DNA from: Cytophagales bacterium
Lineage (GTDB): Bacteria > Bacteroidota > Bacteroidia > Cytophagales > UBA9547
Direction of reading: 5' to 3'
NCBI GenBank assembly: GCA_013297755.1
Contig: JAAFIH010000026.1
Span: 281-64,280, forward strand
DNA length: 64,000 bases
Shown here piece after piece: positions 32,254 through 57,086 of this stretch (the first letter of the stretch is position 1; each line of letters opens with the position of its first letter). Below the pieces are notes generated by a model, which saw nothing but the letters and a program-made list of their open reading frames with translations, searched no databases and was not told the DNA's origin. A program made the position numbers and the translations under genes.

Positions 32254-32592
32254 ATGAAAACACTCTCAAAAATCATATTTTTAGTATCATTTATGATGCT
32301 ATTTACTTTCTGTAACTCCAATGCACAAACCACAAAAGCAAAATTCAAAGTGTATGGCAACTGTGACATGTGTAAAAAAACCATAGAAACAGCTTTGGAT
32401 GTAAAAGGTGTGAAAGCCGCCAATTGGAGTACAGAAACCAAAATGATAGAAATTAGCTATCAATCAGATAAAATCTCAGAAGACAAATTGCACGAACTCA
32501 TAGCTGCTTCTGGCTACGACACCGAAAAGCAAAAAGGCGATGACAAAGCCTATAGCAATTTGCCTGGTTGCTGCCAATACTCACGAAAATAA
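32254..32592 (+). CDS. Secreted heavy-metal-associated (HMA) domain protein with C-terminal GCCQY motif, copy 1
   Basis: Signal peptide, FKVYGNCDMCKKTIETAL (CxxC in an HMA-like beta-alpha start), and C-terminal LPGCCQYSRK. It is a paralog of 36069-36413. Confidence 0.75.
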   Translation: MKTLSKIIFLVSFMMLFTFCNSNAQTTKAKFKVYGNCDMCKKTIETALDVKGVKAANWSTETKMIEISYQSDKISEDKLHELIAASGYDTEKQKGDDKAYSNLPGCCQYSRK

Positions 32593-32607
32593 CCATTTAT
32601 TTGTTTA

Positions 32608-32640
32608 AGATTTGACAAATTTCAAAAAGTTGTCAAATCT
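32608..32640 (+). terminator. 11-bp-stem hairpin after HMA copy 1
   Basis: agatttgacaa-(11 nt)-ttgtcaaatct; no clear U-tract. Confidence 0.5.
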
Positions 32641-32677
32641 AAGATTGGAATATTTATGTAGATATGAAATTTTCTTT

Positions 32678-32710
32678 AAAATATTTTGAAAATATTTTGA
32701 AAATATTTTG
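32678..32710 (+). repeat. Three perfect tandem 11-bp repeats (aaaatattttg) upstream of the Abi promoter
   Basis: Units at 32678-32688, 32689-32699 and 32700-32710. Confidence 0.9.
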
Positions 32711-32737
32711 TGGATTTGAAAATATATGTTACTTTTG
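32707..32737 (+). promoter_or_regulatory. Bacteroidota sigma-A type promoter (-33 TTTG, -7 TAnnTTTG)
   Basis: tacttttg at 32730-32737 is an exact TAnnTTTG match. A tttg at 32707-32710 lies 19 nt upstream. Confidence 0.55.
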
Positions 32738-32743
32738 TGGCAT

Positions 32744-32842
32744 GAATACGTATATAACTATGTAAGTATCCAAAAGATACTACATATCAACTTAATATAC
32801 CTTCCAGGCTTTAGCAATAAAGCACACTTGGGGGGTTTTTTC
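32744..32842 (+). ncRNA. Candidate structured leader/ncRNA ending in a terminator, directly upstream of the Abi_2 gene
   Basis: Bulged 10-bp hairpin at 32760-32785. A gcttta-GCAA-taaagc helix (32808-32823) is nested in ccttccag/cttgggggg (32800-32835) and followed by T6 (32836-32841). No ORF is present. The 5' end is inferred from the promoter only. Confidence 0.4.
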
Positions 32843-32871
32843 TTTTATAGCCCACCTTAATATGCTTTGGA

Positions 32872-33822
32872 ATGAAGCCTTATACCAAGAAACCACTTTT
32901 ATATTCAGAGCAAATACAACTACTTAAAAGTAGAGGATTAGTCATTTCTAATGAGCAAGAGGCTGTAAATTATTTGAGCCAAATAAGCTATTATCGCCTT
33001 AGTGCTTATTTTGTTCCATTTCAAAACACAAAAGATGTTTTCAATCCTAATACTTCGTTTGAGCAAGTTTTAGATTTGTATTTGTTTGATAGAGAATTGC
33101 GTCTTTTGGTCTTTGATGCTATCGAATGGATAGAAATTGCTATCAGGACACAATTAATTTATACACTTTCGACCCAATATGCAGATGGTCATTGGCAAGA
33201 TAATCCAGATCTTTTTAGACCATTATTTACAAATCCCAAAACGGGTCGTATTACAGATATTTATGCAGAAATGCAATCTACAATACTCAAAAGTATATCG
33301 GCAAAACATCCTGAAGTTTTTATAAAACACTATAAATCAACGTATTGTGAACCCAAAAATCCACCAAGTTGGATGTGTATAGAGTTGCTAACCCTGGGCG
33401 AACTTTCTAGGCTTTTTGCAGCTATCAAACATAATGCAGACAAACAAAATATTGCTGTATTTTTTGGATTGCATCACAGTATTTTTTCTTCTTGGTTGCA
33501 TACATTGGTTTATGTACGCAATATTTGTGCCCACCATAGTAGGCTTTGGAATAGAGAATTTGCTATAAAACCTGATGTATTGCAAAAACCCAAAAATGCT
33601 TGGTTACAAAAAGCATTTGATAGTAATAATCATCGAACTTTTTATTTTTTGAGTATTTTAAAATACTTACTTCATGCTGCAAATCCAACAAATCATTTTA
33701 AACAAAAATTAGAATCATTATTTTTAAAATATCCTAGTGTGCCTATTCAATTTATGGGAATACCAACAACAGATGGCAAAAAATCACTTATAAATTGGAA
33801 AAATGAGGATTTATGGATATAA
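32872..33822 (+). CDS. Abi_2 family (AbiD/AbiF-like) abortive-infection protein
   Basis: The N-terminus KPxxxYxEQIxLLKSRGLxI...AxxxLxxISYYRLSAYxxPF is the characteristic start of the Abi_2/AbiD-AbiF family. VRNICAHHSRLWNR matches its conserved RNxxAHxxR(L/V)WN (HEPN-like Rx4-6H) core. Confidence 0.85.
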   Translation: MKPYTKKPLLYSEQIQLLKSRGLVISNEQEAVNYLSQISYYRLSAYFVPFQNTKDVFNPNTSFEQVLDLYLFDRELRLLVFDAIEWIEIAIRTQLIYTLSTQYADGHWQDNPDLFRPLFTNPKTGRITDIYAEMQSTILKSISAKHPEVFIKHYKSTYCEPKNPPSWMCIELLTLGELSRLFAAIKHNADKQNIAVFFGLHHSIFSSWLHTLVYVRNICAHHSRLWNREFAIKPDVLQKPKNAWLQKAFDSNNHRTFYFLSILKYLLHAANPTNHFKQKLESLFLKYPSVPIQFMGIPTTDGKKSLINWKNEDLWI

Positions 33823-33847
33823 ATAAGGTTTTTATAAAACATCATAA

Positions 33848-34246
33848 AAGCATGGAAAAAATAGTAATACTATTATTTTTGATTATTTCAAACCACCATC
33901 TGGAAAATTATTATGTGATTTTAACTTAAAAAACGTAGACTCTGTATTGGTTAAACATTTTAAAAAAGTTTCTAAAGAAATTGGTTATGATTTTCTTCCA
34001 CCAGAGCAACTTTTAAACGAGTTAGGTTATGGATTTATGGGAATAAAATTATTAGATAAATCTTATCAATGCCTAAAATTAAACATAGAGTTATATCCCC
34101 AAAGTTATAATGTATATGATACTATGGGAGAATACTATAAAACGATTGGAGAAAAAGAAAAAGCAATCGAAATGTTTGAAAAATCGCTAGCAATAAAAGA
34201 AAATGGGTATATAAGAGATAAAATAAAGGATTTGAAACAGAAATAA
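33848..34246 (+). pseudogene. 3' fragment of a larger gene (TPR-containing C-terminus); N-terminal part missing
   Basis: The frame is open from 33848 (…IIFDYFKPPSGKLLCDFNL…) with no plausible start or signal peptide. The C-terminus has TPR-like YNVYDTMGEYYKTIGEKEKAIEMFEKSLAI. It begins 25 nt after the Abi stop. Confidence 0.5.
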
Positions 34247-34489
34247 TATGTTTTATTAATGTAGATCAGCAAAAAATTAAAAATTTATTGCTCTATTGAT
34301 TTATATTCTTGCAGTTTTTAGTTGTTTTATTAATACCATATTTTAATAAAATATACGTATAGGAGCATTAAAGTGGCTTATACTTTAAGATGAAATTATT
34401 TACCCAAAAATTTTATAACTCTTTTATGAAATTTTATAAAATATGGTACGTTTTATATATGTATATTTGTAGAATAAAAATTTAGTGTT

Positions 34490-34879
34490 TTGAAAAAAAT
34501 AGTTTCCATATCGCTTTTACTTACATACCTTGCTTTTAGCATAGGTATAAACCTAAGTAAGCACTATTGTGGAGGCAAACTCATTTCAGTAAAGCTATCT
34601 AGTCAGCAAGAAAAATCTTGTAGCATGTGTGGAGGCAAACCTATGAAAGGTTGCTGCAAAGACATTAGCTCATGTTTCAAAATCGATAATGATCATCAGC
34701 ATTCTGCAAAAACAGCTATTGATCTTCCTGCTTTTTCAATTAATTTCAATCACATCTTTCCTGAATTTCAACTTTCGAGCCTTTGGAGTAATGTCGTAGT
34801 AATTTGCTATGATTTTAACCCTGATATTCCAAAGTGGAATAATGATAAAATTACTTTTTTCTGTACCTATCTTATTTGA
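34490..34879 (+). CDS. Small Cys-rich membrane-anchored protein (HYC...CC motifs; resembles the HYC_CC_PP family)
   Basis: N-terminal TM helix, KHYCGG, CSMCGG and KGCCKD. Family assignment is from memory of motif names, not from a search. Confidence 0.55.
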   Translation: MKKIVSISLLLTYLAFSIGINLSKHYCGGKLISVKLSSQQEKSCSMCGGKPMKGCCKDISSCFKIDNDHQHSAKTAIDLPAFSINFNHIFPEFQLSSLWSNVVVICYDFNPDIPKWNNDKITFFCTYLI

Positions 34880-34938
34880 GCCTACTGTATTCTTCGCACA
34901 GAATTTAATTCAATTTCTCAAATAAAATCCATTTAAAA

Positions 34939-36033
34939 ATGAAAACTATCAAAATTTCTGCAATAGCAGGGGTTTTGGCTATGGGCTTGATTTCATGTAA
35001 AAATCATAACATGAATAATCCTACACCAATCCCTGAACTCAATATCAATTATCCAGCTGCTTATGTTGTAAACGGACAAAGCAATGATGTATATGTGATT
35101 GATTTAGCAACCAATACAGTAAAAGAAGTAATCAAACTAGGTGAAATGGCAGATGCCTCTCACGATGGCATGAATATGAGTACTGGCATTTCTTGGCCAC
35201 ATCATATTTACTTAAATCCTTCTAAAACCATACTTTCAATTGGAGTTCCTGGCATGGATTTAAGTGCAGGACACAGTGGCGGAATGGCAGGGATGAAAGG
35301 AAATATTGCTTTAGTAGTTGCCACTAAAGGAAAGATTACCAAAATAATAGAACTGCCTGTAATGAACCACAATGCAGCTTTCTCAAAAGATGGAAGCGAA
35401 ATTTGGACAGCACAAATGGAAGAATCAGGTAAAGTGTTGGTATATGATGCCAATAATTATGCCTTGAAAAAAACTATTGCTGTTGGTGGACAACCTGCAG
35501 AGGTTACATTTTCTTATGATGGAAGTATGGCTTTTGCTGCCAATGGGCACGATAGCACTGTAACAATTATCAATGCTTCTACCAAACAAATTATGGCGAC
35601 TCTCAAAGTTGGTGCAGACCCTGTAGGGGCTTGGACGGGTTCTGATGGTAATATGTATGTAGATAATGAAGAAGGGAAATCTATTTCAATTATCAATGTA
35701 GCTACCATGTCAGTAACAGGTACAATAGATTTGGGATTTATGCCAGGTTTTGCAGCCTATAATAGTAAAATGAATGAGCTCTGGGTTACCGACCCCGACA
35801 ATAGCAAAGTGCATTATTGGATGTTTGACAACACTATGAAAATGTGGATGCATGGCTCAGCTTTTGAAACAGGAAAAGGAGCGCATGCCATAGCCTTTAC
35901 AAAAGATGAAATGACTGCTTATGTTACCAACCAAACAGCCAATACAGTGTCAGTTGTTGATGTGATGAGTCATAAAGAAACAAAAGAAATTCCAGTAGGT
36001 ACTAAGCCTAATGGAATTGTAATTAAAGAGTAA
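34939..36033 (+). CDS. YncE/YVTN-like beta-propeller lipoprotein with Met/His-rich loops
   Basis: Lipobox LISC. Repeated blades (NDVYVIDLATNTV, VLVYDANNYAL, VTIINASTKQI, ISIINVATMSV, VSVVDVMSHKE). Met/His clusters SHDGMNMS, GHSGGMAGMKG and MKMWMHG. Confidence 0.7.
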   Translation: MKTIKISAIAGVLAMGLISCKNHNMNNPTPIPELNINYPAAYVVNGQSNDVYVIDLATNTVKEVIKLGEMADASHDGMNMSTGISWPHHIYLNPSKTILSIGVPGMDLSAGHSGGMAGMKGNIALVVATKGKITKIIELPVMNHNAAFSKDGSEIWTAQMEESGKVLVYDANNYALKKTIAVGGQPAEVTFSYDGSMAFAANGHDSTVTIINASTKQIMATLKVGADPVGAWTGSDGNMYVDNEEGKSISIINVATMSVTGTIDLGFMPGFAAYNSKMNELWVTDPDNSKVHYWMFDNTMKMWMHGSAFETGKGAHAIAFTKDEMTAYVTNQTANTVSVVDVMSHKETKEIPVGTKPNGIVIKE

Positions 36034-36068
36034 ACTATTTTATCCATTTATTTAAAATTCAATAATTT

Positions 36069-36413
36069 ATGAAAACTGTAAAAACAATCGCCTTGATGTT
36101 ATTGACATCAATAATTATGTGGGCAAACGCTCCACAGCATGTAGAAACCATCACATTTAAAGTATGGGGAAATTGTGAAATGTGTAAAGCTCGAATTGAA
36201 AATGCACTTAAAATAAAGGGTGTAAAAAAGGGAGAATGGAACGTAGATACCAAAATAGCTTCAGTTACATTTGATATCCACACCATTAAATCAGATGCTA
36301 TTCACAAAGCAATTGCAGCTGTAGGTTACGATACAGAACAGGTAAGAGCCCAAGACAAAATGTATAAAAAACTACCTGGTTGTTGCCAATACGATAGAGC
36401 TCTTAAAAAATAA
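36069..36413 (+). CDS. Secreted HMA domain protein with C-terminal GCCQY motif, copy 2
   Basis: FKVWGNCEMCKARIENAL and LPGCCQYDRALKK; paralog of 32254-32592. Confidence 0.75.
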   Translation: MKTVKTIALMLLTSIIMWANAPQHVETITFKVWGNCEMCKARIENALKIKGVKKGEWNVDTKIASVTFDIHTIKSDAIHKAIAAVGYDTEQVRAQDKMYKKLPGCCQYDRALKK

Positions 36414-36514
36414 TCTTAAAAGGCTATACCCCACAGGGCAAACGCATTTAAAAATATTATAGTTTATAATAATAAAATATTACTTTAAAAATAATATTTT
36501 AAGAAATATTAGTA

Positions 36515-36590
36515 TCAAAAGTCCCTCCCTTTTGGATTCTGTGGCATTGTAACAGAAATTGGGTTGGGGTGGGGCTAAAAAAAAAGGTAT
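36515..36590 (+). repeat. Isolated copy of GC-rich hairpin-repeat modules related to those at 422-440 and 767-788
   Basis: agtccctcccttttgga, ttctgtggcattgtaacagaa (ttctgt/acagaa stem) and gggttggggtggggc. Confidence 0.6.
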
Positions 36591-37016
36591 TTATTTTAAA
36601 AAAAATCTTAGATTCGTTTGCCCTGATACCCCAAATTTGTCTATATATATTTATATCCATTACAGGGGTGTTTGCCCAAAATTATAAAGCACCTAAAATA
36701 GACGTATCAGGTATTTCAAAACTAGAGATGGTGTACAAATTGGGACAATTACAACAAGAAGCCACTGAAACTTCATGTATTTGTTGTCTGATACTTATTT
36801 TGGTAAAAACTTTACAGTTTGTCCACCTTCAAATGGAATTTGTGAGGTAAATGATGATAAAGGCAACGTGGTTTTATTAATCCATGAAAATTACAAAGCC
36901 CTGGCTGCTTGTGCTTTTCATTGTCTACAAATGAAAAAAGAAGGTAAAGAAATGAAAATTAAGTAGTATCAATTTATGGGAGTTTCAGAAAATGAAACTC
37001 CCTATTTATTCTAAAA

Positions 37017-37580
37017 ATGGAAAATACTAAAATTAATATCAAAAACATGGTTTGCTCTAGGTGCATAATGGCAGTAGAAAGCGTTTTGTTAAGCATGGAA
37101 TTAGTAGATTTCAAAGTGGCTTTAGGCGAAGTAAACCTCAAAAATGAACTTTCAAGTACTCAAAGGCTTCAATTACAGAATGAGCTTTTAAGGCTTGGAT
37201 TTGCATTAATTGATGATAAGAAATCAATGACTATTGAGCGTACAAAAAACCTCCTTATTGACTTAATTCAAAATAGAAACAATAATATACATGTTAATTA
37301 TTCTCAATTTTTATCAAAAGAACTAGGGCTTGACTACAGTTATTTGAGTAATCTATTTTCTTCTATCGAGAATATTACAATCGAAAAATACATTATTTTA
37401 CAAAAGATAGAAAGGGTAAAAGAATTGATGATGTACGATGAATATTCTTTGAATCAAATTGCAGATTTGTTGAACTACAGTAGTGTACAGGCTCTTTCTG
37501 GTCAATTTAAAAAGATAACTGGGTTTTCTCCAGCTTATTATAAGAAGCTGAAAGAAAACAAAAGAAAAGCACTTGGATAA
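37017..37580 (+). CDS. AraC-family transcriptional regulator with N-terminal HMA-like (CxxC) sensor domain
   Basis: The N-terminus INIKNMVCSRCIMAVESVL resembles an HMA metal-binding loop. The C-terminus is an AraC HTH (YSLNQIADLLNYSSVQALSGQFKKITGFSPAYYKK). Confidence 0.75.
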   Translation: MENTKINIKNMVCSRCIMAVESVLLSMELVDFKVALGEVNLKNELSSTQRLQLQNELLRLGFALIDDKKSMTIERTKNLLIDLIQNRNNNIHVNYSQFLSKELGLDYSYLSNLFSSIENITIEKYIILQKIERVKELMMYDEYSLNQIADLLNYSSVQALSGQFKKITGFSPAYYKKLKENKRKALG

Positions 37581-37813
37581 AGCATATATTTTATAACACA
37601 AACCCAAAGAAATGCCAAAAAAATTAAGCAAAAAAACTTTTGTGAATAATTAAAAAGCTGTTATCTCCTCAAAAAACGGAATTATTCTCATAAATTAACC
37701 CAAAGAGGAAGGAATCAATTTAAATAATACAATTAATCGAATATTACTAAAAATAGGGACTTTGTCAATTAAAGTTCGCAGTACCTTTTTACACATTCAA
37801 AATCAAATTAAAA

Positions 37814-40114
37814 ATGAAAAAATTACTTACCTTAGTTTTTATATTATCAACCTTTTGCTTGTTTTGTCAATCAAAAATTGTTCGTGGAGTAGTTATGGAA
37901 GAATCACAAAAAGGTGTATTTTTTCCTTTAGTGGGTACCCCTGTATATTGGCTTGGCAACCCAAGTTTGGGAGCAGTAACTGACACAAGTGGTGTATTTA
38001 CGATTGCCATGCAACCTGAATATAACAAACTCATTGTCAGTTATTTGGGTTATAAATCAGACACTATTTTAGTAAAAGGAACTGAAAAACTGAGAATAAT
38101 TTTGGCTTCTCAAAACTCAAAAGAATTATCAGAAGTAGAAATTACAGAACGCATAAGTAGCAGTTCTATCAATGCTTTGAGTGCATTAAACACCAAAATA
38201 ATGACTGAAAAAGAGCTTTTTAAAGCTGCCTGTTGCAATTTGAGCGAAAGTTTTGAAACCAATCCCTCGGTAGATGTCAATTTTGCAGATGCTGTTACAG
38301 GTGCAAAACAAATTTCAATGCTGGGGCTTTCGGGTATTTATACCCAAATCACTACAGAAAACATGCCAGATATTCGTGGCTTGGGAAGTGCTTATGGCTT
38401 GAGCTATATTCCTGGACCTTGGATAGAATCTATACAAGTTACCAAAGGCATTGGCTCTGTGGCAAATGGCTACGAAAGTATAACAGGGCAAATAAATATC
38501 GAACTCAAAAAACCAGAAATTACCGTAAAAAAAGGAGAAAAAGTGTATGCCAATACCTACGTAAATTCGTTTGGTAGGGTAGAAGCAAATTTAAACATAG
38601 CCACAAAAATCAACCAAAAATGGAGTACAGCCACCCTTTTGCATGGCGATAATATGCAAACAGTTATGGATTTTAATAAAGATAATTTTATGGATATGCC
38701 TATGGGTAGGCAAATAAATGCAATTAATAGATGGAAATATGAAAACAAAAATTGGGTGGTGCAATTTGGTGGAAAATTACTTTTGGACGAACGATTTGGT
38801 GGGCAATATCAATATAATGATTCATTAAGTCAGCATATTGGACACCAAAAGGTAAATTTACCAGAACTTTATAAAATCGAAAACCTTACCCAAAGAGGAG
38901 AACTATTTAGTAAGATAGGATATGTATTTCCAAATAAAAAATATAAAAGTATGGGTTTGCAGATCAGCTTTTTAGAACATAATCAAAACCAAAGTTTTGG
39001 TGGAGGATTATATAAAGGAAATCAACAAAATGTGTATGCTAATTTTATTTATCAATCTATAATAGGAAACACTAATCACAAATGTAGGATTGGAACTAGT
39101 TTTATTGAAGATAAATATTTTGAATATTTTAAATCAAATGGCATTTCAAATACAAAATATAGTCCACTAAAAAGAACCGAAATTGTACCAGGAGTATTTG
39201 GGGAATACACATGGGTGATTTCGCCAAAACTTACTGTCATTTGTGGGCTTCGTGCAGATTATCACAACTATTTTGGACTACAAATATCTCCTCGCCTACA
39301 TGGGAAATATGACCTATCCGAAAAAACGCATATTCGTTTTTCAGGAGGTAGAGGCTTTCGTACTGCCAATATTATTGCAGATAATTTTGGGTATTTTATA
39401 TCAGGTCGAACGGATTTCTTTACAGGAAATTATGAAATTGACAAATATCCTTACGGAATTTCAACTCCTGAAATTGCATGGAATTATGGATTGAGTTTTG
39501 TCCAAGATTTCAGATTAAATTACAGAAAAGGTAATATTACACTAGATTTTTATCGTACAGATTTTGAAAAACAAGTAGTTGCTGATATTATTTCTGATTA
39601 TACCAAAATCCAATATTATGTATTGAGCGGACAAAGTTATGCCAATAGTTTTCAGGCAGAATTTAATTACGAATTGGCTAAAAGATTAGATATTCGCTTG
39701 GCTTATCGTTTTTATGATGTGCAAACCAAATATATTTCTGGTTGGCAACAACGACCTTTTATATCAAAACATCGTTTTTTTGTAAATGCAAGCTATGAAA
39801 CCCGTTCTAAATTCAAATTTGATGCCACTCTCAATTGGAATGGACCAAAATTATTACCACAAACTGTAGAATATGCCCAAAAATATTCTCCTGATTTTAT
39901 TACTGTTAATGCACAACTCAGCAAATCGTTTGGTTCTGAGCAAAAACATTGGTTTGATATGTACATAGGTGGCGAAAACTTGACAGGTTTTCGACAAGAT
40001 TTGGCAATTATAAATGCCCAAAATCCTTTTAATCAAGGCTTTGATGCTGCTCAAATTTGGGCTCCAATCACAGGAGCTATGATTTATGTTGGCGGTAGAT
40101 ATAAATGGAAATAA
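37814..40114 (+). CDS. TonB-dependent receptor (CarboxypepD_reg-like N-domain, plug, beta-barrel)
   Basis: Signal peptide, VRGVVMEE...GVFTI...VSYLGYKSD, plug IESIQVTKGIGSVANGYESITGQINI, and an aromatic C-terminus GGRYKWK. Confidence 0.8.
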   Translation: MKKLLTLVFILSTFCLFCQSKIVRGVVMEESQKGVFFPLVGTPVYWLGNPSLGAVTDTSGVFTIAMQPEYNKLIVSYLGYKSDTILVKGTEKLRIILASQNSKELSEVEITERISSSSINALSALNTKIMTEKELFKAACCNLSESFETNPSVDVNFADAVTGAKQISMLGLSGIYTQITTENMPDIRGLGSAYGLSYIPGPWIESIQVTKGIGSVANGYESITGQINIELKKPEITVKKGEKVYANTYVNSFGRVEANLNIATKINQKWSTATLLHGDNMQTVMDFNKDNFMDMPMGRQINAINRWKYENKNWVVQFGGKLLLDERFGGQYQYNDSLSQHIGHQKVNLPELYKIENLTQRGELFSKIGYVFPNKKYKSMGLQISFLEHNQNQSFGGGLYKGNQQNVYANFIYQSIIGNTNHKCRIGTSFIEDKYFEYFKSNGISNTKYSPLKRTEIVPGVFGEYTWVISPKLTVICGLRADYHNYFGLQISPRLHGKYDLSEKTHIRFSGGRGFRTANIIADNFGYFISGRTDFFTGNYEIDKYPYGISTPEIAWNYGLSFVQDFRLNYRKGNITLDFYRTDFEKQVVADIISDYTKIQYYVLSGQSYANSFQAEFNYELAKRLDIRLAYRFYDVQTKYISGWQQRPFISKHRFFVNASYETRSKFKFDATLNWNGPKLLPQTVEYAQKYSPDFITVNAQLSKSFGSEQKHWFDMYIGGENLTGFRQDLAIINAQNPFNQGFDAAQIWAPITGAMIYVGGRYKWK

Positions 40115-40144
40115 CTTTTTTAGATTTTTAATATTAATAAATTA

Positions 40145-42601
40145 TTACTTTTTTTTATCTAAAAATCCAGTTAATACCAATTTTATGTTTATATTTCTAC
40201 CCATGTTGAATACCCCTCTACGCCCTGTTAGTGGGTTTATATCCAAATATTTGAGCCTACTTTGATGTGATTGGTAGGTTTGGTCAAAAATATTATTAAC
40301 TGATAAAAATATTGAAACAATATTACTTTTTTTATTAATTACAATTTCTGAACCAACACCCAAATTTAACAGTGCATAAGCTGGAGTTGCAGTTTCTGTT
40401 TGATTTGCTTTCAAATACTGGTTTTGAGCTTGGGTAGTTTCAAGCTCTAGACTTGCGTAAGAATTTTTTAAAAATTTACCCATTTTATCTTTTGTAAATT
40501 TTATTTGCGAAAGCCACCTTGGAGCAGGCATAAAAGGCAAATATCGTGCAGAATCACTATTATTGCTCAAATTTTGAGCCCTAACAATAGAAAAATTTTG
40601 TGTAAAACTTATCCATCTAGCATTTTCGGGACTGATAGTAGCCACTGCTTCGCCCCCAAACAAAATGGCATTTCCTTGCACATACTGAAAAGTAGGCACT
40701 GCACTCAAAGGATTTACTAAGCTATCGCCCCCAAATTTTGACAATATTTTTTGGCTAAAAGTATAATTTGAAATACTGTTTTGAAATAAATTGACATCAA
40801 AATAAAAGTTTTTGTTTTCGTAAGTCATACCAATATCTGATTGAAAAGAAGTTTCAGATTTCTGATTAATATTACCATATTCATATCTAAAAGTGCCAGA
40901 ATGTTCGCCATTAGATGCAATCTCTGGCACTGTTGGGGCTCTAAATCCACGAGCTAAATTTGTTTTGAAAAGTAATTTGTCTGATACAAAAAATACCAAA
41001 CCCACACTTCCTGTAAAGTTATTAAAATCTTTGTTAAACCCCGAAAATCTTACAGTAGAGTTGGGGCTATTTGTAGATTGAAATTTGCCATTATCATCTA
41101 CAAAAAGTTTATCTATTTGCAAATTTCTACTATCAACCCTAAGGCCACCGCTAAGGTGCCATCGATTAAATTTTTGTTTAGAGAAAATAAATATTCCATT
41201 ATCACGCATTTGATAATTAGGATAAAGCACTTCAGCACCTTTGTTGGTTTGGGTTTGATACATTCCATTACTGCCAATAGTGATTTCAGTATTTTGACTT
41301 GAAATAGGATGCCATTTGAGGTCGTAATAGAGTGTTTGCAAATGAAAATATAAAGTAGGAATATTTGGTTGAAATATATCGCCATATTCCTTGCGGTGAT
41401 TTTGAGCCATTGAAATAATAGCTTGCAAGGTAGTTTTGCCAAGATATAAGTAATTATTCCAAGAAATTTTTTGATTAGTAAGGTTTTGAGACGATGATGG
41501 ATTTATTTCTCTTGTATTTAACTCATCGTCTGAAAGTGTTTTTTCTATGATTTGTTGGTTGGATTGTAACATTTGCGTTTTAAATTTACCAATACTGTCT
41601 CTTGTGCCTTCTATAATATTTACTTTGTTGTTGAAACTCGACAAATAGACATGAGAATATCCCCATTTTCTTTGCAATCCTATCATACCATTGATATTAT
41701 GTTCGTTAAAATTTGAACCAAATACAGCACCATCATATTTATTTTGGTAATTATTTGCGTTTTTGTGAGATAATCTCATTCGCCAAACTATTCCTTTTTG
41801 ATGGCCTGTAACCATACCAGTAATACCATACATTTGATTGTTGGTTTGGTAATTTAATAGAGTTTTTGCTTGTATTTTTCCTTCTTCGATAATTCTTGGC
41901 GAAAACAGCGACATCACTCCACCAAGTCCATCAGATCCATACATCAAACTGCCTGCACCTCGTATGATTTCGTATCTATCTATCGAATACTCATCTACTT
42001 GTATGGCGTGTTCTTCGCCCCATTGGTTGTCCTCTTGCCGCACTCCATCGTGCATGGTAATCACTCGATTGAATCCTAACCCACGAATCATAGGTTTTGA
42101 TAGCTGACTTCCAGTAGTTACTTGACTCATACCTGGTTGTTTGGCAATAGCATCAGTCAGATTTGTGGCATTTCCTTGAAGCCACTGTAGATGCGAAAAT
42201 GTGCTAATTGCCAATGGACTTTCTTTGATGATAGTACGACTGTTGGCTCCACTCACTATGACTTCGTCCAAAGATTGAGCCGAGTTTTCCATAGTGTAAT
42301 TTACTGAATATGAGCTATCTATGGTTATTTTATCAACAATAGTTTTGTGAGAAACATATTTTATTTCTAATGTAATATTACCTTTTGAAATATTTGAAAA
42401 TACAAAATTTCCATCAATATCAGTTGTAGTGATTTTGTTTAATTCAATCAAATATATAGTAGCACCTATGATAGGTTCTTTGTTTTCGATATGTACAATA
42501 TTACCTTTAAGTACATATTGAGAGTAAGATATGCAACAATTTACTAAAAAAATACATACCAAATTTACTTTAGACATTTGTGTTTTACTTATTTTAAACA
42601 A
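40145..42601 (-). CDS. TonB-dependent receptor (CarboxypepD_reg-like N-domain, plug, beta-barrel)
   Basis: LKGNIVHIENKEPIIGATIYL...DGNFVF, LDEVIVSG, and plug IRGLGFNRVITMHDGVRQEDNQWGEEH...YEIIRGAGSLMYGSDGLGGV. Confidence 0.85.
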   Translation of the reverse strand: MFKISKTQMSKVNLVCIFLVNCCISYSQYVLKGNIVHIENKEPIIGATIYLIELNKITTTDIDGNFVFSNISKGNITLEIKYVSHKTIVDKITIDSSYSVNYTMENSAQSLDEVIVSGANSRTIIKESPLAISTFSHLQWLQGNATNLTDAIAKQPGMSQVTTGSQLSKPMIRGLGFNRVITMHDGVRQEDNQWGEEHAIQVDEYSIDRYEIIRGAGSLMYGSDGLGGVMSLFSPRIIEEGKIQAKTLLNYQTNNQMYGITGMVTGHQKGIVWRMRLSHKNANNYQNKYDGAVFGSNFNEHNINGMIGLQRKWGYSHVYLSSFNNKVNIIEGTRDSIGKFKTQMLQSNQQIIEKTLSDDELNTREINPSSSQNLTNQKISWNNYLYLGKTTLQAIISMAQNHRKEYGDIFQPNIPTLYFHLQTLYYDLKWHPISSQNTEITIGSNGMYQTQTNKGAEVLYPNYQMRDNGIFIFSKQKFNRWHLSGGLRVDSRNLQIDKLFVDDNGKFQSTNSPNSTVRFSGFNKDFNNFTGSVGLVFFVSDKLLFKTNLARGFRAPTVPEIASNGEHSGTFRYEYGNINQKSETSFQSDIGMTYENKNFYFDVNLFQNSISNYTFSQKILSKFGGDSLVNPLSAVPTFQYVQGNAILFGGEAVATISPENARWISFTQNFSIVRAQNLSNNSDSARYLPFMPAPRWLSQIKFTKDKMGKFLKNSYASLELETTQAQNQYLKANQTETATPAYALLNLGVGSEIVINKKSNIVSIFLSVNNIFDQTYQSHQSRLKYLDINPLTGRRGVFNMGRNINIKLVLTGFLDKKK

Positions 42602-44364: not shown

Positions 44365-45442
44365 CTAATTTTCCATCAGCCAAGCCTTAATAAAATTATC
44401 TAAGTTGCCATCCATTACTGCTTGCACATCAGAAGTTTCTACCCCTGTACGAGCGTCTTTTACTAATTTGTATGGGTGCATCACATAATTTCTAATCTGC
44501 GAACCCCATTCTATTTTCTTTTTTGTGCCTTCAATTTTATCTCTTTCTGCATTTTGTTTGTCGAGTTCTAATTGATACAATTTTGATTTTAGCATCTGCA
44601 TCGCCATTTCTCTGTTGGCATTTTGCGATCTTTCTACTTGGCAAACTACCACTATACCTGTTGGTTTATGGGTAAGTTGAACTTTTGTTTCTACTTTATT
44701 TACATTTTGCCCACCTGCTCCACCAGATCTTGAGGTATGCAATTCGATGTCAGCAGGATTGATTTCTATTTTTATGGTATTGTCGGCAATGGGATAAACA
44801 AATACAGACGAGAATGAAGTGTGTCTTCGAGCATTGGAATCGAACGGAGATATTCTTACTAATCTATGGACGCCAATCTCAGCTTTGAGGTATCCATAGG
44901 CAAAAGGCCCCACAAACTCTATCGTACATGATTTTATACCTGCACCATCGCCATCTTGTCGATCGATTTCTCTAATTTTGTATCCATTTCGCTCACCATA
45001 CATGATGTACATTCGCATGAGCATCTCAGACCAATCTTGACTTTCGGTGCCGCCTGCACCAGAATTTATTTCCAATACGGCTCCCATTTGGTCTTCTTCG
45101 GCATTGAGCATACGTTTTAGCTCCAATTGTTCTAGTAATATTTCTAGTACATCTATTTCTTTTTGAACTTCATTTTCTGTTGCTTCACCAGCTTCTAAAA
45201 ACTCAATCAATACCTCAACTTCGGCTTTTTGTTTCAGAATTTCTGTAAATGGGTCTGTCCACATTTTATACATTCTAATGCCTTTGAGTACTTCTTCGGC
45301 TTTTTGCGAATTGTCCCAAAAATCGGGTGCTGTTGTGTTTCGTTCTTGTTCTTTGATTAGTTCTAGTTTGATGTCGTAGTCAAAGATACCTCCCCAAAGC
45401 CTCAATACGGCTATTCAGATTTTTTGTCTGATCTAAATTCAT
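44365..45442 (-). CDS. prfB: Peptide chain release factor 2, requiring a programmed +1 frameshift
   Basis: Frame 0 runs from ATG 45442, [20 protein letters not shown], then TGA at 45382-45380. The +1 frame continues DYDIKLE... and carries SPF (RISPFDS) and GGQ ([11 protein letters not shown]) motifs. Confidence 0.9.
45379..45395 (-). promoter_or_regulatory. prfB +1 frameshift site with internal SD-like stimulator
   Basis: The minus strand reads ggggagg tat ctt tga c, matching the canonical CUU UGA C slippery/stop context preceded by an SD-like element. Confidence 0.85.
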
Positions 45443-45758
45443 AAATATTTTTTTTACAAAAATATACTATTTTTTCGATTTTTACATTTTGTTTATTAAT
45501 GATTGCTATTTTTGACAAAGGGTTCTATTTTATATAAGCCTTTTTTAGCACTAATTTTTTCAGAATTTAAAATTGGATAAAGCATCTTTTGACTTAATTT
45601 AAAAAGTCATAATTTTTGGTAATAAATTTTTTAGTTAAAATAGTATGTTAAACCAAACAAAATTTTTTAATAATAGTATATGATATATCATTTATTGACT
45701 TTTATAGTTTTTATTTGAGATATTTTTTTAAAGAACACAACTTAATTTAGTTTCTTAG

Positions 45759-47060
45759 ATGTATTATAATTTCAAAATTTTAAATAGTTTTACCCTTACC
45801 ATACTTTTTTGGATTATTTTTCATATTTGTTTTTATGCTTTTTTTTTGCATTATAACTCTTTTGACTTTTGTGTTTCAGTTTTACCCTATACCCTTTTAG
45901 TTTTTTTTATTGGTCTTCTATTTATTTATTTTATGATCAATAATATTAAAATATTAAAAAAAATAGATCTTGAAAAATCAAAATTTGAATTTATCTTTAA
46001 TAGTTCGGTTGATGCACTTTTTATAGTTGATAAAACTAAACTTTTAATTATTGATTGCAACAAGAGGGCAGTAGAATTATTTGAGGCCAACCAAAAAGCT
46101 GATTTGATTGGTTTTGATGGCACAAAATTACATTTTGAACCACTCTCTGAGTCTGAAAGAATAGAAATAAAATACAAAAATGATAAAGAACAGAATTTAG
46201 ATTATGAATTTCAATATATTACTTTTAAAAATAAAATATTTTGGGGGCATTTAATTTCAACACCTATATTGATTGAAAATAAAATATGTAATTTAGTAAG
46301 AATTTCTGATATTTCAAGTAGAAAATCGACTGAATTGAAATTAATTTCTGCTAACGAAGACTTAAAAATTGCCAATGAAGAGCTTGATAGCTTTGTATAT
46401 AGGGCATCGCACGATTTGAGGTCGCCTCTGACTTCTATTTTGGGTCTTTTAAATGTAACTGTTGTCGAAAATACAGATTCAAACGCTATAAAATATGTAC
46501 CTTTGATGCAACAAAGTGTTCAAAAATTACTTCATGTAATAGATGATTTAATTCTTTATTCACGCAATTCAAGGATAGAAATTAAACCTGAAAATATCAA
46601 TTTTAAAGAGATTATTAACACACAAATATCTAATTTAAATCACTTGATTAATGCCAATAAAATTACTTTTAATATTCATATAAACCCTACTGAAATAGCA
46701 TTCAAATCTGATGTTTTGAGAATATATATTCTTTTTAGTAACCTTATTTCAAATGCAATAAAATATCACGACTCAAGTAAGATAAATCAATTTATAAATA
46801 TAGATATAAATTACAACGATATAGAAGCTAATATTGTTATTTCTGATAATGGTTCTGGTATACCTAGCGACCATATTAGTAAGATATTTAATATGTTTTA
46901 CAGAGCAAATATTACGTCAACAGGTTCTGGTTTAGGGCTTTATATCGTAAAAGGTGTGATAGAGAAACTAGGCGGCAAAATAGAAGTAGAATCTGTTTAC
47001 AAACAAAGCACAACTTTTAAAATATTAATACCAAATATTACTCATATTGTCAATGAATAA
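45759..47060 (+). CDS. Membrane sensor histidine kinase (TM, PAS-like, HisKA, HATPase_c)
   Basis: H-box FVYRASHDLRSPLTSI, N-box LISNAIKY, and G-boxes DNGSGIP and GSGLGLYIVK. Confidence 0.85.
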   Translation: MYYNFKILNSFTLTILFWIIFHICFYAFFLHYNSFDFCVSVLPYTLLVFFIGLLFIYFMINNIKILKKIDLEKSKFEFIFNSSVDALFIVDKTKLLIIDCNKRAVELFEANQKADLIGFDGTKLHFEPLSESERIEIKYKNDKEQNLDYEFQYITFKNKIFWGHLISTPILIENKICNLVRISDISSRKSTELKLISANEDLKIANEELDSFVYRASHDLRSPLTSILGLLNVTVVENTDSNAIKYVPLMQQSVQKLLHVIDDLILYSRNSRIEIKPENINFKEIINTQISNLNHLINANKITFNIHINPTEIAFKSDVLRIYILFSNLISNAIKYHDSSKINQFINIDINYNDIEANIVISDNGSGIPSDHISKIFNMFYRANITSTGSGLGLYIVKGVIEKLGGKIEVESVYKQSTTFKILIPNITHIVNE

Positions 47061-48159
47061 AATACCTGTAAGCATCGTTACTGGATTTTTGGGAGCTGGT
47101 AAAACCACACTTTTAAATCATATTATTAAGAATAATCCAAATAAAAAGTTAGCTATCATCGAAAACGAAATAGGTTCTATTTCCATAGATTCTGATTTGA
47201 TAGTAAAGTCAGAAAATGGTATCTTTGAATTATCTAATGGATGTGTTTGTTGTACACTAAATGGAGAATTGCTAGAAATTCTTACAAAATTAATCAACAG
47301 TTCTAGCCAAATATCTCATGTAGTAATAGAAACTACTGGCATAGCTGACCCAGGCCCAGTAGCGTTTAGCTTTTTGGCTGATTTAAAAATTCAATCTGCT
47401 TTCAAATTAGATTCAATTATTACGTTAGTTGATGGGCCAAGAATCGAACAATTATTGATAGAAACTATTGAAGCCAATAAACAAATCATACAAGCAGATT
47501 TGGTTTTAATTAATAAATCGGCTTTAATGGACGATTATCAAAAAGATGTAGTAAAAAATATAATTACAAAAATAAACACGCAAGCTCAAATATTATTTAC
47601 AGATTATGCCAAAATAAATGACTCAGATTTTTTTGATAGAAATAGTTTCGATTCATATAAAATTATAGAAAAAGTAATTTCAGAGAAAAAATCTTTTAAA
47701 ATTAGTTCTTCAATTTCTACATCACAAACAAATACATCTTTATTACAAAAACAAGGCATGTCTGCTGCTATACATAGTAATATTTTTAGTTATTCATTTA
47801 CTTTTGAAGAAAGTTTAGATGTAATAAGATTTGATATTTGGCTAAACGCTATGCTTCAGGGCGATTTGTGCAAATTTTATCGTGTAAAAGGAATTTTGCA
47901 AATCGAAGAATTTGAAGAAAAAGTAATATTACAATCTGTTGGCGACAAATTTATAACTGAATCTGGCGGTAGTTGGAATACAGAAGAACCCAAAGTTTCT
48001 AAAATTGTATTTATAGGCAAAAACTTACATTATCAAACGCTTGAAAATGGATTAAAACTTTGTTTTTATAATGAAAATCAACCCTTGCCAGACGAAAATT
48101 TTTATGCTGCTGTCATGACCAACCAAGTGGATATGTTTTTGGCCAACAATGCAACCTAA
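47047..48159 (+). CDS. COG0523/CobW-family G3E GTPase (putative metallochaperone)
   Basis: Walker A GFLGAGKTTLLNHI, CVCCTL (CxCC) metal motif, ETTGIADP, and a CobW_C-like tail. The start overlaps the kinase stop by 14 nt. Confidence 0.85.
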   Translation: MSMNKIPVSIVTGFLGAGKTTLLNHIIKNNPNKKLAIIENEIGSISIDSDLIVKSENGIFELSNGCVCCTLNGELLEILTKLINSSSQISHVVIETTGIADPGPVAFSFLADLKIQSAFKLDSIITLVDGPRIEQLLIETIEANKQIIQADLVLINKSALMDDYQKDVVKNIITKINTQAQILFTDYAKINDSDFFDRNSFDSYKIIEKVISEKKSFKISSSISTSQTNTSLLQKQGMSAAIHSNIFSYSFTFEESLDVIRFDIWLNAMLQGDLCKFYRVKGILQIEEFEEKVILQSVGDKFITESGGSWNTEEPKVSKIVFIGKNLHYQTLENGLKLCFYNENQPLPDENFYAAVMTNQVDMFLANNAT

Positions 48160-50247: not shown

Positions 50248-52434
50248 TTATAAAATAATCAGCCCATTTCCTTTCAAATTTTTTATTGTATTGCTTTCTA
50301 AAAACTGCTCTGTTAATAATTTTGAAAAATTATATGTAGATTCTAACATTGAAATTGAGATTGGGTTATATTTTTTTTCAGTAATAATTTCAATTATTTC
50401 TTTATAAATTATTTCAAAATTTAATCTTACATTTGATTTTTTGTTTATTATTAAAATCATTTCTTTTGAAGTTTTATTTTTTTGACTCACTTCAGTTGTA
50501 AATGCTACCTTACCACCAATCCATACCATTTTAGCATTCGTTTGAATTTTTTTGTCTTCATTTAATAGTAAGATTTTTTCAATATAATTTTGTTTAATTG
50601 AAGTTTTTGGTGTAAAAAAATCAAACCATCTGTGTAAAGGTAGATCATAACCAATGCCGTACATATAGTTAAACAAAGATTTTTTTAATCCATCACTAAA
50701 CAAATCATGGTTGCAACCTGTCAAATCATTGTATTCTATATCATTGTTTGCAAAAGTACCTACTACATTTGAGTTCTTTTTTACATTAAATTTTTCGGGA
50801 AACATACCAACTGGGCTGTGAGCTGTCATGGCAAATTGGTGCCAAAAACCAGATTGAAGTACGCCATTGGAGAATAATTGGCGTACAATTTCCATAGAAT
50901 CAATCGTTTCTTGTATCGTTTGGGTAGGGAATCCATACATTAAATAAGCATGAACCATGATACCTGATTGCGTAAAATTGTTTGCCACTCTAGCCACTTG
51001 AGCTACAGTAACACCTTTTTCGATTAATTCTAAAAGTCTATCAGAGGCCACTTCTAAGCCACCAGAAACTGCAATACAACCTGATTCGGCCAGTAATCTA
51101 CACAAATCAATGGTAAAACTTTTTTCAAATCTTATGTTTGTCCACCAAACTACAGTAAGATTTCTTTTTAAAATTTCTAAAGCTACCTCTTTCATCAAAG
51201 CTGGTGGAGCTGCCTCGTCTACAAAATGAAAACCTGTTTGGCCAGTTTGTATCATGATTTGTTCAATTCTATCAACTATTACTTTTGCAGTAGTAAATTC
51301 GTAAGATTTGATATAATCTAGTGAAATATCGCAAAATGTACATTTTCCCCAATAGCAACCATGTGCCAGTGTCAATTTATTCCATCGACCATCGCTCCAT
51401 AATCTGTGCATAGGGTTTACAATTTCTATGACAGATATGTATTCGTTGAGTTTTAAATTACTATAATCTGGAGTTCCTACATCTTTTTGCTTAAAATCAG
51501 GCATTTCTGAACCATTTTTATAGATAACATTGTCGTTTTCTAAAACAAAGGTTCTTTTTAATTTTTCTATATTTCTTATTTTTTCTACATATTGAAAAAG
51601 ACACAAAATAGGTGCTTCGCCATCGTCAAGAGTAATAAAATCTATATAATCAAATACATTTTTATCTGAAATAGATCTTAGTTCTGTATTGGCAAAACCA
51701 CCACCTAAAGCAACTTTTATATCAATAATTTTTTTTTTTATAAACTGACCACATTTGAGAGTGCTATACAAATTGCCTGGAAAAGGAACCGTAAATGCAA
51801 CTATTTTTGGTTTATAAGTATTTATTTTTTCATTTAATATTTTTAAAGTGATAGCATCAATGTAAGTATTTTCATTATTTAATGCAGATTTTAGTTCCTC
51901 AAATGTAGAAGCCGAACGTCCTAATTTTTCAGCATATCTACTAAATCCAAAGTGTGGATCTACAGCTTCAATAATTAAATCAGAAATATCTTCGAGGTAT
52001 AATGTTGCCAAATGACGCGCTTTGTCTTGAATTCCCATTGTTCCAAATGCCCACTCTAGGTCTTCTAACTGAGAAAAACGAGATGCTTGAGGCAGAAAAT
52101 TTCCTTCACAAATAAGATGAGCAAGGTTTGGATTTTTATTTTGTAGAAAATGTATGATTGGTTCTATTGTTTTGATATAGTCGTGTCGAAGGTTTATAAT
52201 TCTGGTAGCATTGTCAGAATATATTTTATTTTTTGATGTAATATATTCAAAAATATTTTTAAATCCTTCGGTTGAAAATATCTCCAATATTACTTCTAAC
52301 CCTATATCTATTTGGTAAGAGGTTATATTTTTTGTATTCAAAAATCCTTTAATGTAGGCTGTGGCAGGGTAGGGGGTGTTTAATTGTGTAAATGGGGGTG
52401 TGATTAACAAAAATTTTACTTCATGGTTTTCCAT
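50248..52434 (-). CDS. Large B12-binding-like radical SAM protein with CX4CX2C cluster spacing
   Basis: About 728 aa from ATG 52434 (an alternative TTG at 52449 would overlap the upstream stop). The cluster motif reads HGCYWGKCTFCD, and the N-terminal Rossmann-like region is LLITPPF... Confidence 0.75.
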   Translation of the reverse strand: MENHEVKFLLITPPFTQLNTPYPATAYIKGFLNTKNITSYQIDIGLEVILEIFSTEGFKNIFEYITSKNKIYSDNATRIINLRHDYIKTIEPIIHFLQNKNPNLAHLICEGNFLPQASRFSQLEDLEWAFGTMGIQDKARHLATLYLEDISDLIIEAVDPHFGFSRYAEKLGRSASTFEELKSALNNENTYIDAITLKILNEKINTYKPKIVAFTVPFPGNLYSTLKCGQFIKKKIIDIKVALGGGFANTELRSISDKNVFDYIDFITLDDGEAPILCLFQYVEKIRNIEKLKRTFVLENDNVIYKNGSEMPDFKQKDVGTPDYSNLKLNEYISVIEIVNPMHRLWSDGRWNKLTLAHGCYWGKCTFCDISLDYIKSYEFTTAKVIVDRIEQIMIQTGQTGFHFVDEAAPPALMKEVALEILKRNLTVVWWTNIRFEKSFTIDLCRLLAESGCIAVSGGLEVASDRLLELIEKGVTVAQVARVANNFTQSGIMVHAYLMYGFPTQTIQETIDSMEIVRQLFSNGVLQSGFWHQFAMTAHSPVGMFPEKFNVKKNSNVVGTFANNDIEYNDLTGCNHDLFSDGLKKSLFNYMYGIGYDLPLHRWFDFFTPKTSIKQNYIEKILLLNEDKKIQTNAKMVWIGGKVAFTTEVSQKNKTSKEMILIINKKSNVRLNFEIIYKEIIEIITEKKYNPISISMLESTYNFSKLLTEQFLESNTIKNLKGNGLIIL

Positions 52435-52445
52435 ACCTATTTCAA

Positions 52446-54116: not shown

Positions 54117-54148
54117 TAAAATAATATTATAATTTTATTTTTAAGATT

Positions 54149-57073: not shown

Positions 57074-57086
57074 TTTTTTGTTTATT

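Follow-up and report, generated by a model that had tools for sequence, protein, structure and literature searches.

A probable reduced copy of a Bacteroidota envelope copper system in a Cytophagales genome

The window analysed here is a stretch of 64,000 nucleotides (64 kb) from a Cytophagales bacterium (contig JAAFIH010000026.1), and the subject of this report is a gene cluster at positions 32254 to 42601 that had been predicted, from the sequence alone, to encode a metal-handling system of the cell envelope. The cluster was found to be a genuine copper or soft-metal module, and comparison with related loci showed that it is a reduced and interrupted copy of a larger, integrase-linked island and not a complete, purpose-built unit. 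Taken as a whole, it probably represents a trimmed version of an envelope system for Cu(I), and possibly Ag(I), that occurs throughout the Bacteroidota. Two units recur robustly across this phylum: one consists of an HYC_CC_PP protein and a secreted HMA protein (HMA_GCC), which partner either a Cus-type pump or a TonB-dependent receptor of the type named H below, and the other of an AraC regulator bearing an HMA domain (HMA-AraC) and an HMA-bearing membrane protein. The window belongs to a rarer lineage in which both units are joined. All of the genes and motifs named in the original prediction were located where it had placed them, and the features of the locus are as follows, in the coordinates of the window.

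32254..32592, + strand: HMA_GCC paralogue A, 112 aa, secreted, with an HMA domain
32872-33822, + strand: Abi_2 gene (abortive-infection-like), from the family scan
33947-34246, + strand: TPR fragment of 99 aa, from the family scan
34411..34421, + strand: candidate AraC operator 1, TTTTATAACTC, a repeated motif preceding the D-E-F operon
34490..34879, + strand: D, HYC_CC_PP / DUF8199 protein, 129 aa (NCBIfam NF047658)
34939..36033, + strand: E, lipoprotein with a YVTN seven-blade beta-propeller, 364 aa (TIGR02276)
36069..36413, + strand: HMA_GCC paralogue F, 114 aa, secreted, with an HMA domain
36608..36963, + strand: pseudogene of a 152-aa secreted protein family (tblastn and blastn against locus L001)
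37017..37580, + strand: G, HMA-AraC regulator, 187 aa (HTH_18/HTH_AraC, HMA-like N-terminus)
37589..37613, + strand: candidate AraC operator 2, TTTTATAACACAAACCCAAAGAAAT, a repeated motif preceding receptor H
37814..40114, + strand: H, TonB-dependent receptor, 766 aa (Pfam Plug and barrel)
40145..42601, - strand: I, TonB-dependent receptor, 818 aa, convergent with H; membership in the module not supported

Recurrence across the Bacteroidota and in close relatives

Neighbourhoods were compared from two anchors. The first set was anchored on HMA_GCC, the family of A and F, and comprised 80 genome loci from Cytophagales, Chitinophagales, Sphingobacteriia, Flavobacteriales, Saprospiraceae, Bacteroidales and others, in which neighbours within ±10 kb were scored by phmmer. 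The numbers of these 80 loci with each neighbour were:

RND pump: 42
HYC_CC_PP, usually the gene just upstream: 40
CusB-like membrane-fusion protein: 25
DUF3347: 25
HMBD proteins: 21
Multicopper oxidase: 20
P1B ATPase: 20
Receptor H family: 17
Propeller: 13
HMA-AraC: 12

The commonest gene order was HYC_CC_PP > HMA_GCC > RND. Efflux or oxidase genes (Cus-type RND, P1B-ATPase or multicopper oxidase) were present in 53 of the loci and both these genes and receptor H in 3; as neighbours of HMA_GCC, the two are almost mutually exclusive. Clustering of the unannotated neighbours, with a Pfam scan of the top 10 of the 25 most recurrent families, added CusB with HMBD, outer-membrane factors (OEP), DUF2911, DUF326 and SnoaL-like proteins, and DUF305 proteins were also encountered among the neighbours in other genomes. 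DUF326 is the Csp copper-storage fold and DUF305 the CopM-type copper-binding domain. In such company, which elsewhere includes CusA/CusB-like RND proteins with HMBD, HMA-P1B ATPases, multicopper oxidase, DUF326 and DUF305, the copper-like metal put forward in the original prediction is likely, and it is from these neighbours that copper is assigned here as the likely metal.

The same neighbours bear on a different metal relay, of the Mer type, in which MerP-like HMA proteins would pass Hg or another thiophilic metal (Cd, Zn, Au) to Cys-Cys pairs. MerP is the best structural match of F, the MerP and MerTP NCBIfam models gave weak matches, some homologues are labelled 'mercuric ion binding protein' by the Joint Genome Institute (JGI), and MerT, MerC and the C-terminus of MerA typically have vicinal Cys-Cys pairs. 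However, the scores against MerP (TIGR02052) were 39.3 bits for F and 23.1 bits for A against a cut-off of 92.55, leading to rejection of this assignment, and neither a MerA-like oxidoreductase nor MerT was seen among the 25 most recurrent unannotated neighbour families, the top 10 of which were Pfam-scanned. MerT, MerA and MerR were not found in the window either, and none of them turned up in the neighbourhood surveys of the 80 loci within the same Pfam-scanned families. The neighbours are instead of the copper type (CusB with HMBD, multicopper oxidase, HMA-P1B ATPases and DUF326), and a relay dedicated to mercury or any other soft metal is judged highly improbable.

The second set was anchored on receptor H and comprised 80 metagenome loci, 41 of which were fully flanked (at least 1.5 kb on each side). 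Beside the receptor in these 41 loci stood HMA_GCC in 34 and HYC_CC_PP in 23, and at least one of HMA_GCC, HYC_CC_PP and HMBD was present in 39; efflux or multicopper oxidase genes were found in 5, HMA_DUF4396 in 6 and HMA-AraC in 2. A shorter order, HYC_CC_PP > HMA_GCC > AraC > receptor H, recurs independently in two loci (L077 and L082), and A-like copies elsewhere usually lie between HYC_CC_PP and a TonB receptor. The parts named in the original prediction therefore recur together across the Bacteroidota, as seen from both the genome and the metagenome loci.

The origin of the cluster in the window was traced through close relatives, namely contigs whose proteins are 82% identical to F and G and whose DNA is 81% identical. 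The island in these relatives runs from an integrase through a di-haem oxidoreductase (DHOR), a Rieske protein, an unknown protein, DUF8199, the propeller, the HMA protein and the 152-aa protein to DUF2147, a methyltransferase, the AraC regulator, HMA_DUF4396, a multicopper oxidase, the TonB receptor and a further methyltransferase, and ends in either an RND pump or a second receptor with a P-type ATPase. By DNA comparison, the window is collinear with this island minus DUF2147, the methyltransferase, HMA_DUF4396 and the multicopper oxidase. The 152-aa secreted protein, a family with no Pfam match on record, survives between F and G as a frameshifted pseudogene (36608-36963) from which residues 53-87 have been lost: with the intact copy of locus L001 (10407-10865) as the query, tblastn placed it in frame +2 at 36608-36763 and in frame +1 at 36769-36963, and blastn showed collinearity with the relatives and a deletion of about 100 nt. 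The original prediction, which did not mention this pseudogene, had treated the set as one complete unit, a view that gives way here to that of a trimmed copy of an island with multicopper oxidase, RND pump and P-type ATPase. It had also passed over the Abi_2 gene and the TPR fragment, which interrupt the cluster between A and the HYC_CC_PP operon. This stretch (32872-34246) has a GC content of about 0.29 and is absent from the closely related islands L001-L012, so that it appears to be an insertion; the Abi_2 gene and the TPR fragment are outside the cluster. The prediction had correctly stated that the window holds no P-type ATPase or RND pump: none was found in the 64 kb, and no oxidase, by Pfam scans of the other large open reading frames (ORFs) or by tblastn with efflux, oxidase and ATPase queries. 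The entire Cus-type set of RND pump, membrane-fusion protein and outer-membrane factor, which is present beside homologues elsewhere, is likewise absent across the 64-kb window.

Such losses could also mean that there is no coherent system, and that a decaying locus has left a chance assortment of genes, remnants of a degraded mobile island that are neither expressed nor of use any longer. The pseudogene, the absence of DUF2147, methyltransferase, HMA_DUF4396 and multicopper oxidase relative to the close relatives, the Abi_2 gene and TPR fragment within the cluster and the integrase adjoining the relatives' island would all fit this explanation. However, none of the six core ORFs is disrupted and each retains all residues that are invariant in its family, both promoter-proximal motifs and their -7 boxes are retained, and the short order recurs independently in the genomes of L077 and L082; the probability of mere decay is therefore put very low, if anything a shade below that of a metal other than copper.

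Three further features of the related islands were observed. An inner-membrane fusion of HMA and DUF4396, absent from the window, recurs in L001 (12685-13317) and in L082, L013, L141, L145, L149, L162, L169 and L176, its gene lying directly after HMA-AraC or directly before receptor H; this protein is a candidate inner-membrane partner. A trio of DHOR, Rieske and an approximately 406-aa protein lies just upstream of HYC_CC_PP in L001 (5465-8331), L008 (2954-5815), L029 and L060. In L008 (6515-10004), which represents one lineage, the HMA_GCC gene follows a multicopper oxidase and two other proteins that carry type IX secretion C-terminal sorting domains, so that the cell surface is the destination of some of the copper proteins encoded in these islands.

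Conserved folds, cysteines and flanking genes

The two secreted HMA proteins share 42% identity, and both have N-terminal signal sequences. A carries GNCDMC at residue 35 (from 32356) and a C-terminal LPGCCQY (GCC from 32566), and F carries GNCEMC, its four cysteines being C36/C39 of the CxxC (36174-36185) and C105/C106 of the Cys-Cys (36381-36386). Both exceed the gathering score of 24.8 bits for Pfam HMA (PF00403), with 28.2 bits for A and 31.7 bits for F. A homologue search with F returned 704 matches at E ≤ 0.001, the top-listed source-named ones all being from Bacteroidota, and in 29 diverse homologues of A and F the segment K-V-x-G-N-C-x-M-C, the C-terminal Cys-Cys and the Tyr after it are invariant; A keeps the residues that are invariant in the family. 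The C-terminal LPGCCQY, originally described as invariant throughout, is invariant at L, CC and Y only. The AlphaFold (AF2) model of F (predicted local distance difference test, pLDDT, 86.7) has the beta-alpha-beta-beta-alpha-beta order of the HMA fold, with strands at 25-32, 52-58 and 63-69 and helices at 37-46 and 75-84. The CxxC loop (GNCxMC, residues 34-39) lies between strand 25-32 and helix 37-46, and the Cys-Cys is carried on a well-ordered, confidently placed C-terminal extension. The best Foldseek matches were MerP (1osd) and CopZ (6ff2), with template modelling (TM) scores of 0.86-0.90 and a root-mean-square deviation (rmsd) of 1.0 Å. Since F matches these structures so closely, the possibility that the approximately 110-aa proteins lack an HMA fold falls away, and the fold originally proposed for them is borne out by the Pfam score, the AF2 model and the Foldseek search. 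Assignment to CopZ (NF033794 / NF033795) was rejected, the scores being 40.5 and 38.7 bits against cut-offs of 95 / 91, and the proteins having signal sequences whereas CopZ is cytoplasmic.

Protein D carries HYC at residue 25, CSMC at 44 and GCC at 54 and matches the NCBIfam model HYC_CC_PP (NF047658) with 41 bits against a cut-off of 28. A protein identical to D (P0242) carries PF26622 (DUF8199) in precomputed data; the Pfam scan run here gave no match for D. In 41 homologues of D, all of them DUF8199, residues H25, C27, C44, C47, C55 and C56 are invariant. At the position of PP in most HYC_CC_PP members D has NP...DIP, and its C-terminal part departs from the family pattern. Its AF2 model (mean pLDDT 60) comprises a helix at 2-18 and three short strands, the C-terminal half falling below 50 with no confident structure. 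The N-terminal hydrophobic helix could be either a membrane anchor or a cleaved signal peptide, which leaves the earlier description of D as membrane-anchored uncertain; the HYC, CSMC and GCC motifs of that description are present and their Cys and His residues invariant.

Protein E has the lipobox LISC and contains 23 Met and 11 His. It matches the YVTN repeat model (TIGR02276) with 127.5 bits, and a PDB sequence search returned generic YVTN propellers only, the closest being 1L0Q (7e-28). The family alignment conserves WPHH, PGMDLSxGH, NHNA and AHAIAF, and the Met-rich loops vary in length and content; of the three Met/His clusters to which attention had been drawn originally, all are present, and the first and third are not conserved in the family. 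The zinc metallochaperone AztD (NF038015) was rejected as an identity for E, since the match was confined to one repeat and scored 25.8 bits where the cut-off is 400.

Receptor H contains CarbopepD_reg_2, Plug (26.6 bits against 23.9) and barrel (67.9 bits) domains in Pfam and has a TonB-box-like segment, LSEVEITE, at residue 105. As it combines this segment with a Plug domain and a barrel, H would be expected to function in import. The motif KAACCNLSESFETN, N-terminal within the plug, holds the pair C140/C141 (38231-38236), and KA(A/P)CCNLSESF(E/Q)TN is kept in 14 of the 14 H homologue ORFs that cover this region, the Cys-Cys being invariant. H is 59% identical to, and an orthologue of, the L001 receptor downstream of the multicopper oxidase. 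Receptor I (Plug 66.1 bits, barrel 92.8 bits) is a protein of another kind: its best PDB match is ZnuD (3e-20), followed by haem receptors, and it has no Cys outside its signal peptide. An OprC/NosA-type copper receptor (TIGR01778) was rejected for both, H giving no match and I 38 bits against 472, with neither CxxxM nor HxM in either protein. The original prediction had placed two convergent TonB receptors in the set; both are present and convergent, and H belongs to the module. I was rejected as a member, being similar to ZnuD and haem receptors, lacking mature cysteines, having a relative in 1 of the 80 HMA_GCC loci only and lying co-directional with housekeeping genes. About 4.5 kb from I (40145-42601), a CobW/COG0523 GTPase gene (47047-48159) overlaps the end of a PAS histidine kinase gene (45759-48159 region), and the ZnuD-like receptor and this GTPase may be zinc-limitation genes.

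By ORF listing and family scans, the cluster is flanked upstream by SprA of the type IX secretion system and downstream by a TPR protein, a 165-aa ORF and prfB, with all three of which receptor I is co-directional. Judged by this gene content, the organism belongs to the Bacteroidota and is of low GC. The prfB gene (- strand) contains at 45370-45445 a classic programmed +1 frameshift site, CTT TGA C preceded by GGGGAGG, and because of this frameshift the 346-aa ORF listed from 45405 is the post-shift part only. Further downstream, a run of four genes on the - strand (50248-58226) encodes two radical SAM proteins (one of 733 aa, the other B12-binding and with DUF4080), a 986-aa M16 peptidase and a 379-aa protein that matches no Pfam family, and may be a peptide-modification cluster.

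The HMA-AraC regulator and the direction of metal movement

The N-terminus of G reads NMVCSRC, in which C13 and C16 are the sole cysteines of the protein, and its DNA-binding domain scores above the cut-offs of both HTH_18 (46.3 bits) and HTH_AraC (40.7 bits). The family of G is very large, its members being about 186 aa long, and M-V-C-x-R-C is invariant in 21 homologues. Residues 4-63 of the family profile matched HMA domains in the PDB, including CopA (1p6t, 5.9e-6; 2rml, 4.5e-5), ATP7B (4e-5) and CopZ (6ff2, 4.6e-4), within an overall range of E = 5.9e-6 to 1e-3, and the C-terminal part matched the DNA-binding domains of YesN, XylR and AraC. These profile matches, on which the domain call relies since direct alignment with the HMA_GCC family was not significant, indicate that G carries a real N-terminal HMA domain; the HMA-like N-terminus that had been noticed on the regulator is borne out by them and by the invariant MVCxRC. 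Homologues of G lie directly upstream of the HMA-P1B ATPase gene (copA) in Flavobacterium, Dysgonomonas and other loci, and in Ferruginibacter next to HMA-MauE.

Within the 64 kb, a motif, TTTTATAAC(W)C, has exactly two occurrences, which lie on the + strand at 34411 and 37589, against a chance expectation of 0.34. Before D, the first copy stands 55 nt ahead of the TTTG in a perfect -7 box of the Bacteroidota type (TAnnTTTG, 34462-34469); before H, the second follows the stop codon of AraC by 8 nt and precedes a -7-like TTTG (37639-37642) by 50 nt. In the relatives L001, L011 and L012, the 9-mer is likewise limited to two copies, at the two corresponding positions and again with the 55-nt spacing. 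The intergenic DNA downstream of AraC is about 77% identical to that of the relatives, where HMA_DUF4396, the multicopper oxidase and the TonB receptor come next, and in more distant loci a loosely similar element was recognised, by eye only, between the AraC stop codon and the -7 box. The repeated motif is thus a candidate operator of G, and since it precedes both D-E-F and receptor H, these would form the probable G regulon in the window; the metal-sensing regulon of the original prediction is supported to the extent that one candidate operator fronts both operons. Activator sites of AraC-type regulators typically lie at roughly -60 to -30, and the position of the candidate sites at about -60 to -30 suggests activation.

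From these elements, a route for copper can be proposed. Receptor H, powered by TonB and with the invariant Cys-Cys in its plug, would bring copper across the outer membrane; A and F, with four cysteines each, would accept Cu(I) and pass it on by thiol ligand exchange; and HYC_CC_PP, with one His and five invariant Cys, together with the His/Met propeller in this lineage, would serve as further acceptors or buffers in the envelope. HMA-AraC may sense cytoplasmic Cu(I) through its single CxxC and bind the shared site just upstream of the -33 region at the promoters of the D-E-F operon and receptor H. Import of copper into a chaperone-buffered periplasm, to which we would give somewhat less than an even chance, is favoured by the architecture of H and by its frequent occurrence without efflux genes, and could provide the metal for copper enzymes, periplasmic or secreted, for example the multicopper oxidase encoded ahead of receptor H in relatives. 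A bolder version, which seems unlikely as a whole, is that three unrelated proteins with an invariant vicinal Cys-Cys each, namely H (in its plug), the periplasmic HMA chaperone and HYC_CC_PP, form an undescribed Mer-like thiol relay carrying Cu(I) inward, in some genomes to HMA-DUF4396, and that HMA-AraC, as a new class of one-component sensor, controls this relay and is the main copper regulator of the Bacteroidota.

The alternative direction is sequestration or detoxification, with the cluster being the remnant of a copper/silver detoxification system. HMA_GCC, HYC_CC_PP and the propeller would then soak up or chaperone Cu(I) in the periplasm and would normally deliver it to a Cus-type RND pump and a multicopper oxidase; with these lost, the remaining genes would only buffer copper, and H would have a role in stress other than import. 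This is consistent with the efflux or multicopper oxidase genes in 53 of the 80 HMA_GCC loci, with the order HYC_CC_PP > HMA_GCC > RND, in which HMA_GCC takes the position of CusF in cus operons, with the confinement of the propeller to efflux or multicopper oxidase contexts, with the multicopper oxidase, RND pump and P-type ATPase of the close relatives, and with the regulator family flanking copA. A stress response is further suggested by the probable co-transcription of an H-type receptor with the multicopper oxidase in relatives, by a type of regulator common to copA and by the activator-like position of the operator. However, H has the features of a TonB-driven importer and is nearly always found with HMA_GCC or HYC_CC_PP, having efflux genes nearby in just 5 of the 41 fully flanked loci; efflux and receptor contexts are nearly exclusive, meeting in 3 of the 80 HMA_GCC loci; and nothing in the window is able to remove copper from the cell. 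Detoxification is therefore considered a possible but doubtful explanation, and the choice between uptake and detoxification, left undecided in the original prediction, still stands as such.

Several points weigh against copper handling by a reduced envelope system as proposed here. The metal is inferred only from neighbouring genes, and the literature that could be searched, which was incomplete, yielded no experimental work on any of the members. The structural model of HYC_CC_PP is of low confidence (pLDDT 60), and the direct profile comparison (hhalign) of the AraC and HMA_GCC families did not reach significance (probability 0.9, E = 0.06). The window is without an inner-membrane transporter, pump or oxidase and holds a pseudogene, so that this copy may be partly non-functional. 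The operator motif was picked after inspecting the sequences, and two matches were also reached in 5 of 100 shuffles; the site is activator-like, the regulator family also sits beside copper-efflux genes, and an importer induced by copper would be odd. Lastly, the propeller was found beside receptor H in none of the 80 receptor-anchored loci, and its link to the receptor is thus specific to this lineage.

Implications and comparison with known systems

Copper handling is poorly worked out in the Bacteroidota, a phylum of major gut, soil, freshwater and marine bacteria. The comparisons suggest that HMA-AraC is the usual regulator beside copA and related genes, that secreted HMA proteins with an extra Cys-Cys and DUF8199/HYC_CC_PP proteins serve both Cus-type pumps and a dedicated TonB receptor, and that this receptor family has an invariant Cys-Cys of its own. 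If this is confirmed, copper sensors of a new type and a new route for a soft metal through the outer membrane would become known, and two families so far only named in databases would receive functions; the copy in the window is trimmed and is not the best experimental model. The original prediction had called the system apparently uncharacterised, and in the literature, as far as its incomplete coverage goes, we found no functional study of HYC_CC_PP/DUF8199, HMA-AraC regulators or the receptor H family, and a single genome-survey mention of DUF4396; the families themselves are already catalogued (HMA, HYC_CC_PP / DUF8199 and YVTN propeller).

Among known systems, CusCFBA of E. coli likewise combines a gene for a small secreted metallochaperone with RND, membrane-fusion protein and outer-membrane factor genes, HMA_GCC lying just upstream of CusA/CusB-like genes in most related loci, and the probable metal is in both cases Cu(I)/Ag(I). 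CusF, however, is an OB-fold Met/His/Trp protein, whereas the chaperone here has an HMA fold with a CxxC and a C-terminal Cys-Cys; the window also lacks the RND, membrane-fusion protein and outer-membrane factor genes, and its regulator is HMA-AraC rather than CusRS. The propeller recalls the AztD type in being a periplasmic beta-propeller with conserved His among metal-transport genes, but E is a generic YVTN lipoprotein and is tied to copper efflux genes, not to a zinc ABC transporter.

G resembles CueR (MerR family), CsoR and CopY in being a one-component regulator beside copA or copper genes with a cysteine pair as the likely Cu(I) ligands, and differs from them in joining an AraC/XylS DNA-binding domain to an HMA ferredoxin-like sensor. 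To our knowledge, this architecture is not among the characterised copper sensors (CueR, CsoR, CopY and CusRS/CopRS). For the flavobacterium Bizionia argentinensis, a genome survey from 2024 on copper homeostasis reported no canonical copper-site regulator and made no mention of AraC proteins (PMC11213822). As a TonB-dependent transporter genetically tied to copper proteins, receptor H is similar to OprC and NosA; in relatives it stands directly downstream of the multicopper oxidase, as NosA is linked to NosZ maturation. The copper site of OprC is CxxxM-HxM (as quoted in PMC11213822), in place of which H has the invariant plug Cys-Cys.

The MerP-MerT pair shares with the cluster a periplasmic CxxC HMA protein, MerP (1osd, rmsd 1.0 Å) being the best structural match, and vicinal Cys-Cys on partner proteins, and the logic would again be one of thiol-to-thiol transfer inward. 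Unlike MerT, HYC_CC_PP has at most one membrane helix and hence no channel, and the outer-membrane step here is a TonB receptor, which Mer systems lack. Together, these likenesses suggest that the module resembles a mixture of a CusF-type chaperone, a MerP-to-MerT cysteine relay and an OprC/NosA-type receptor.

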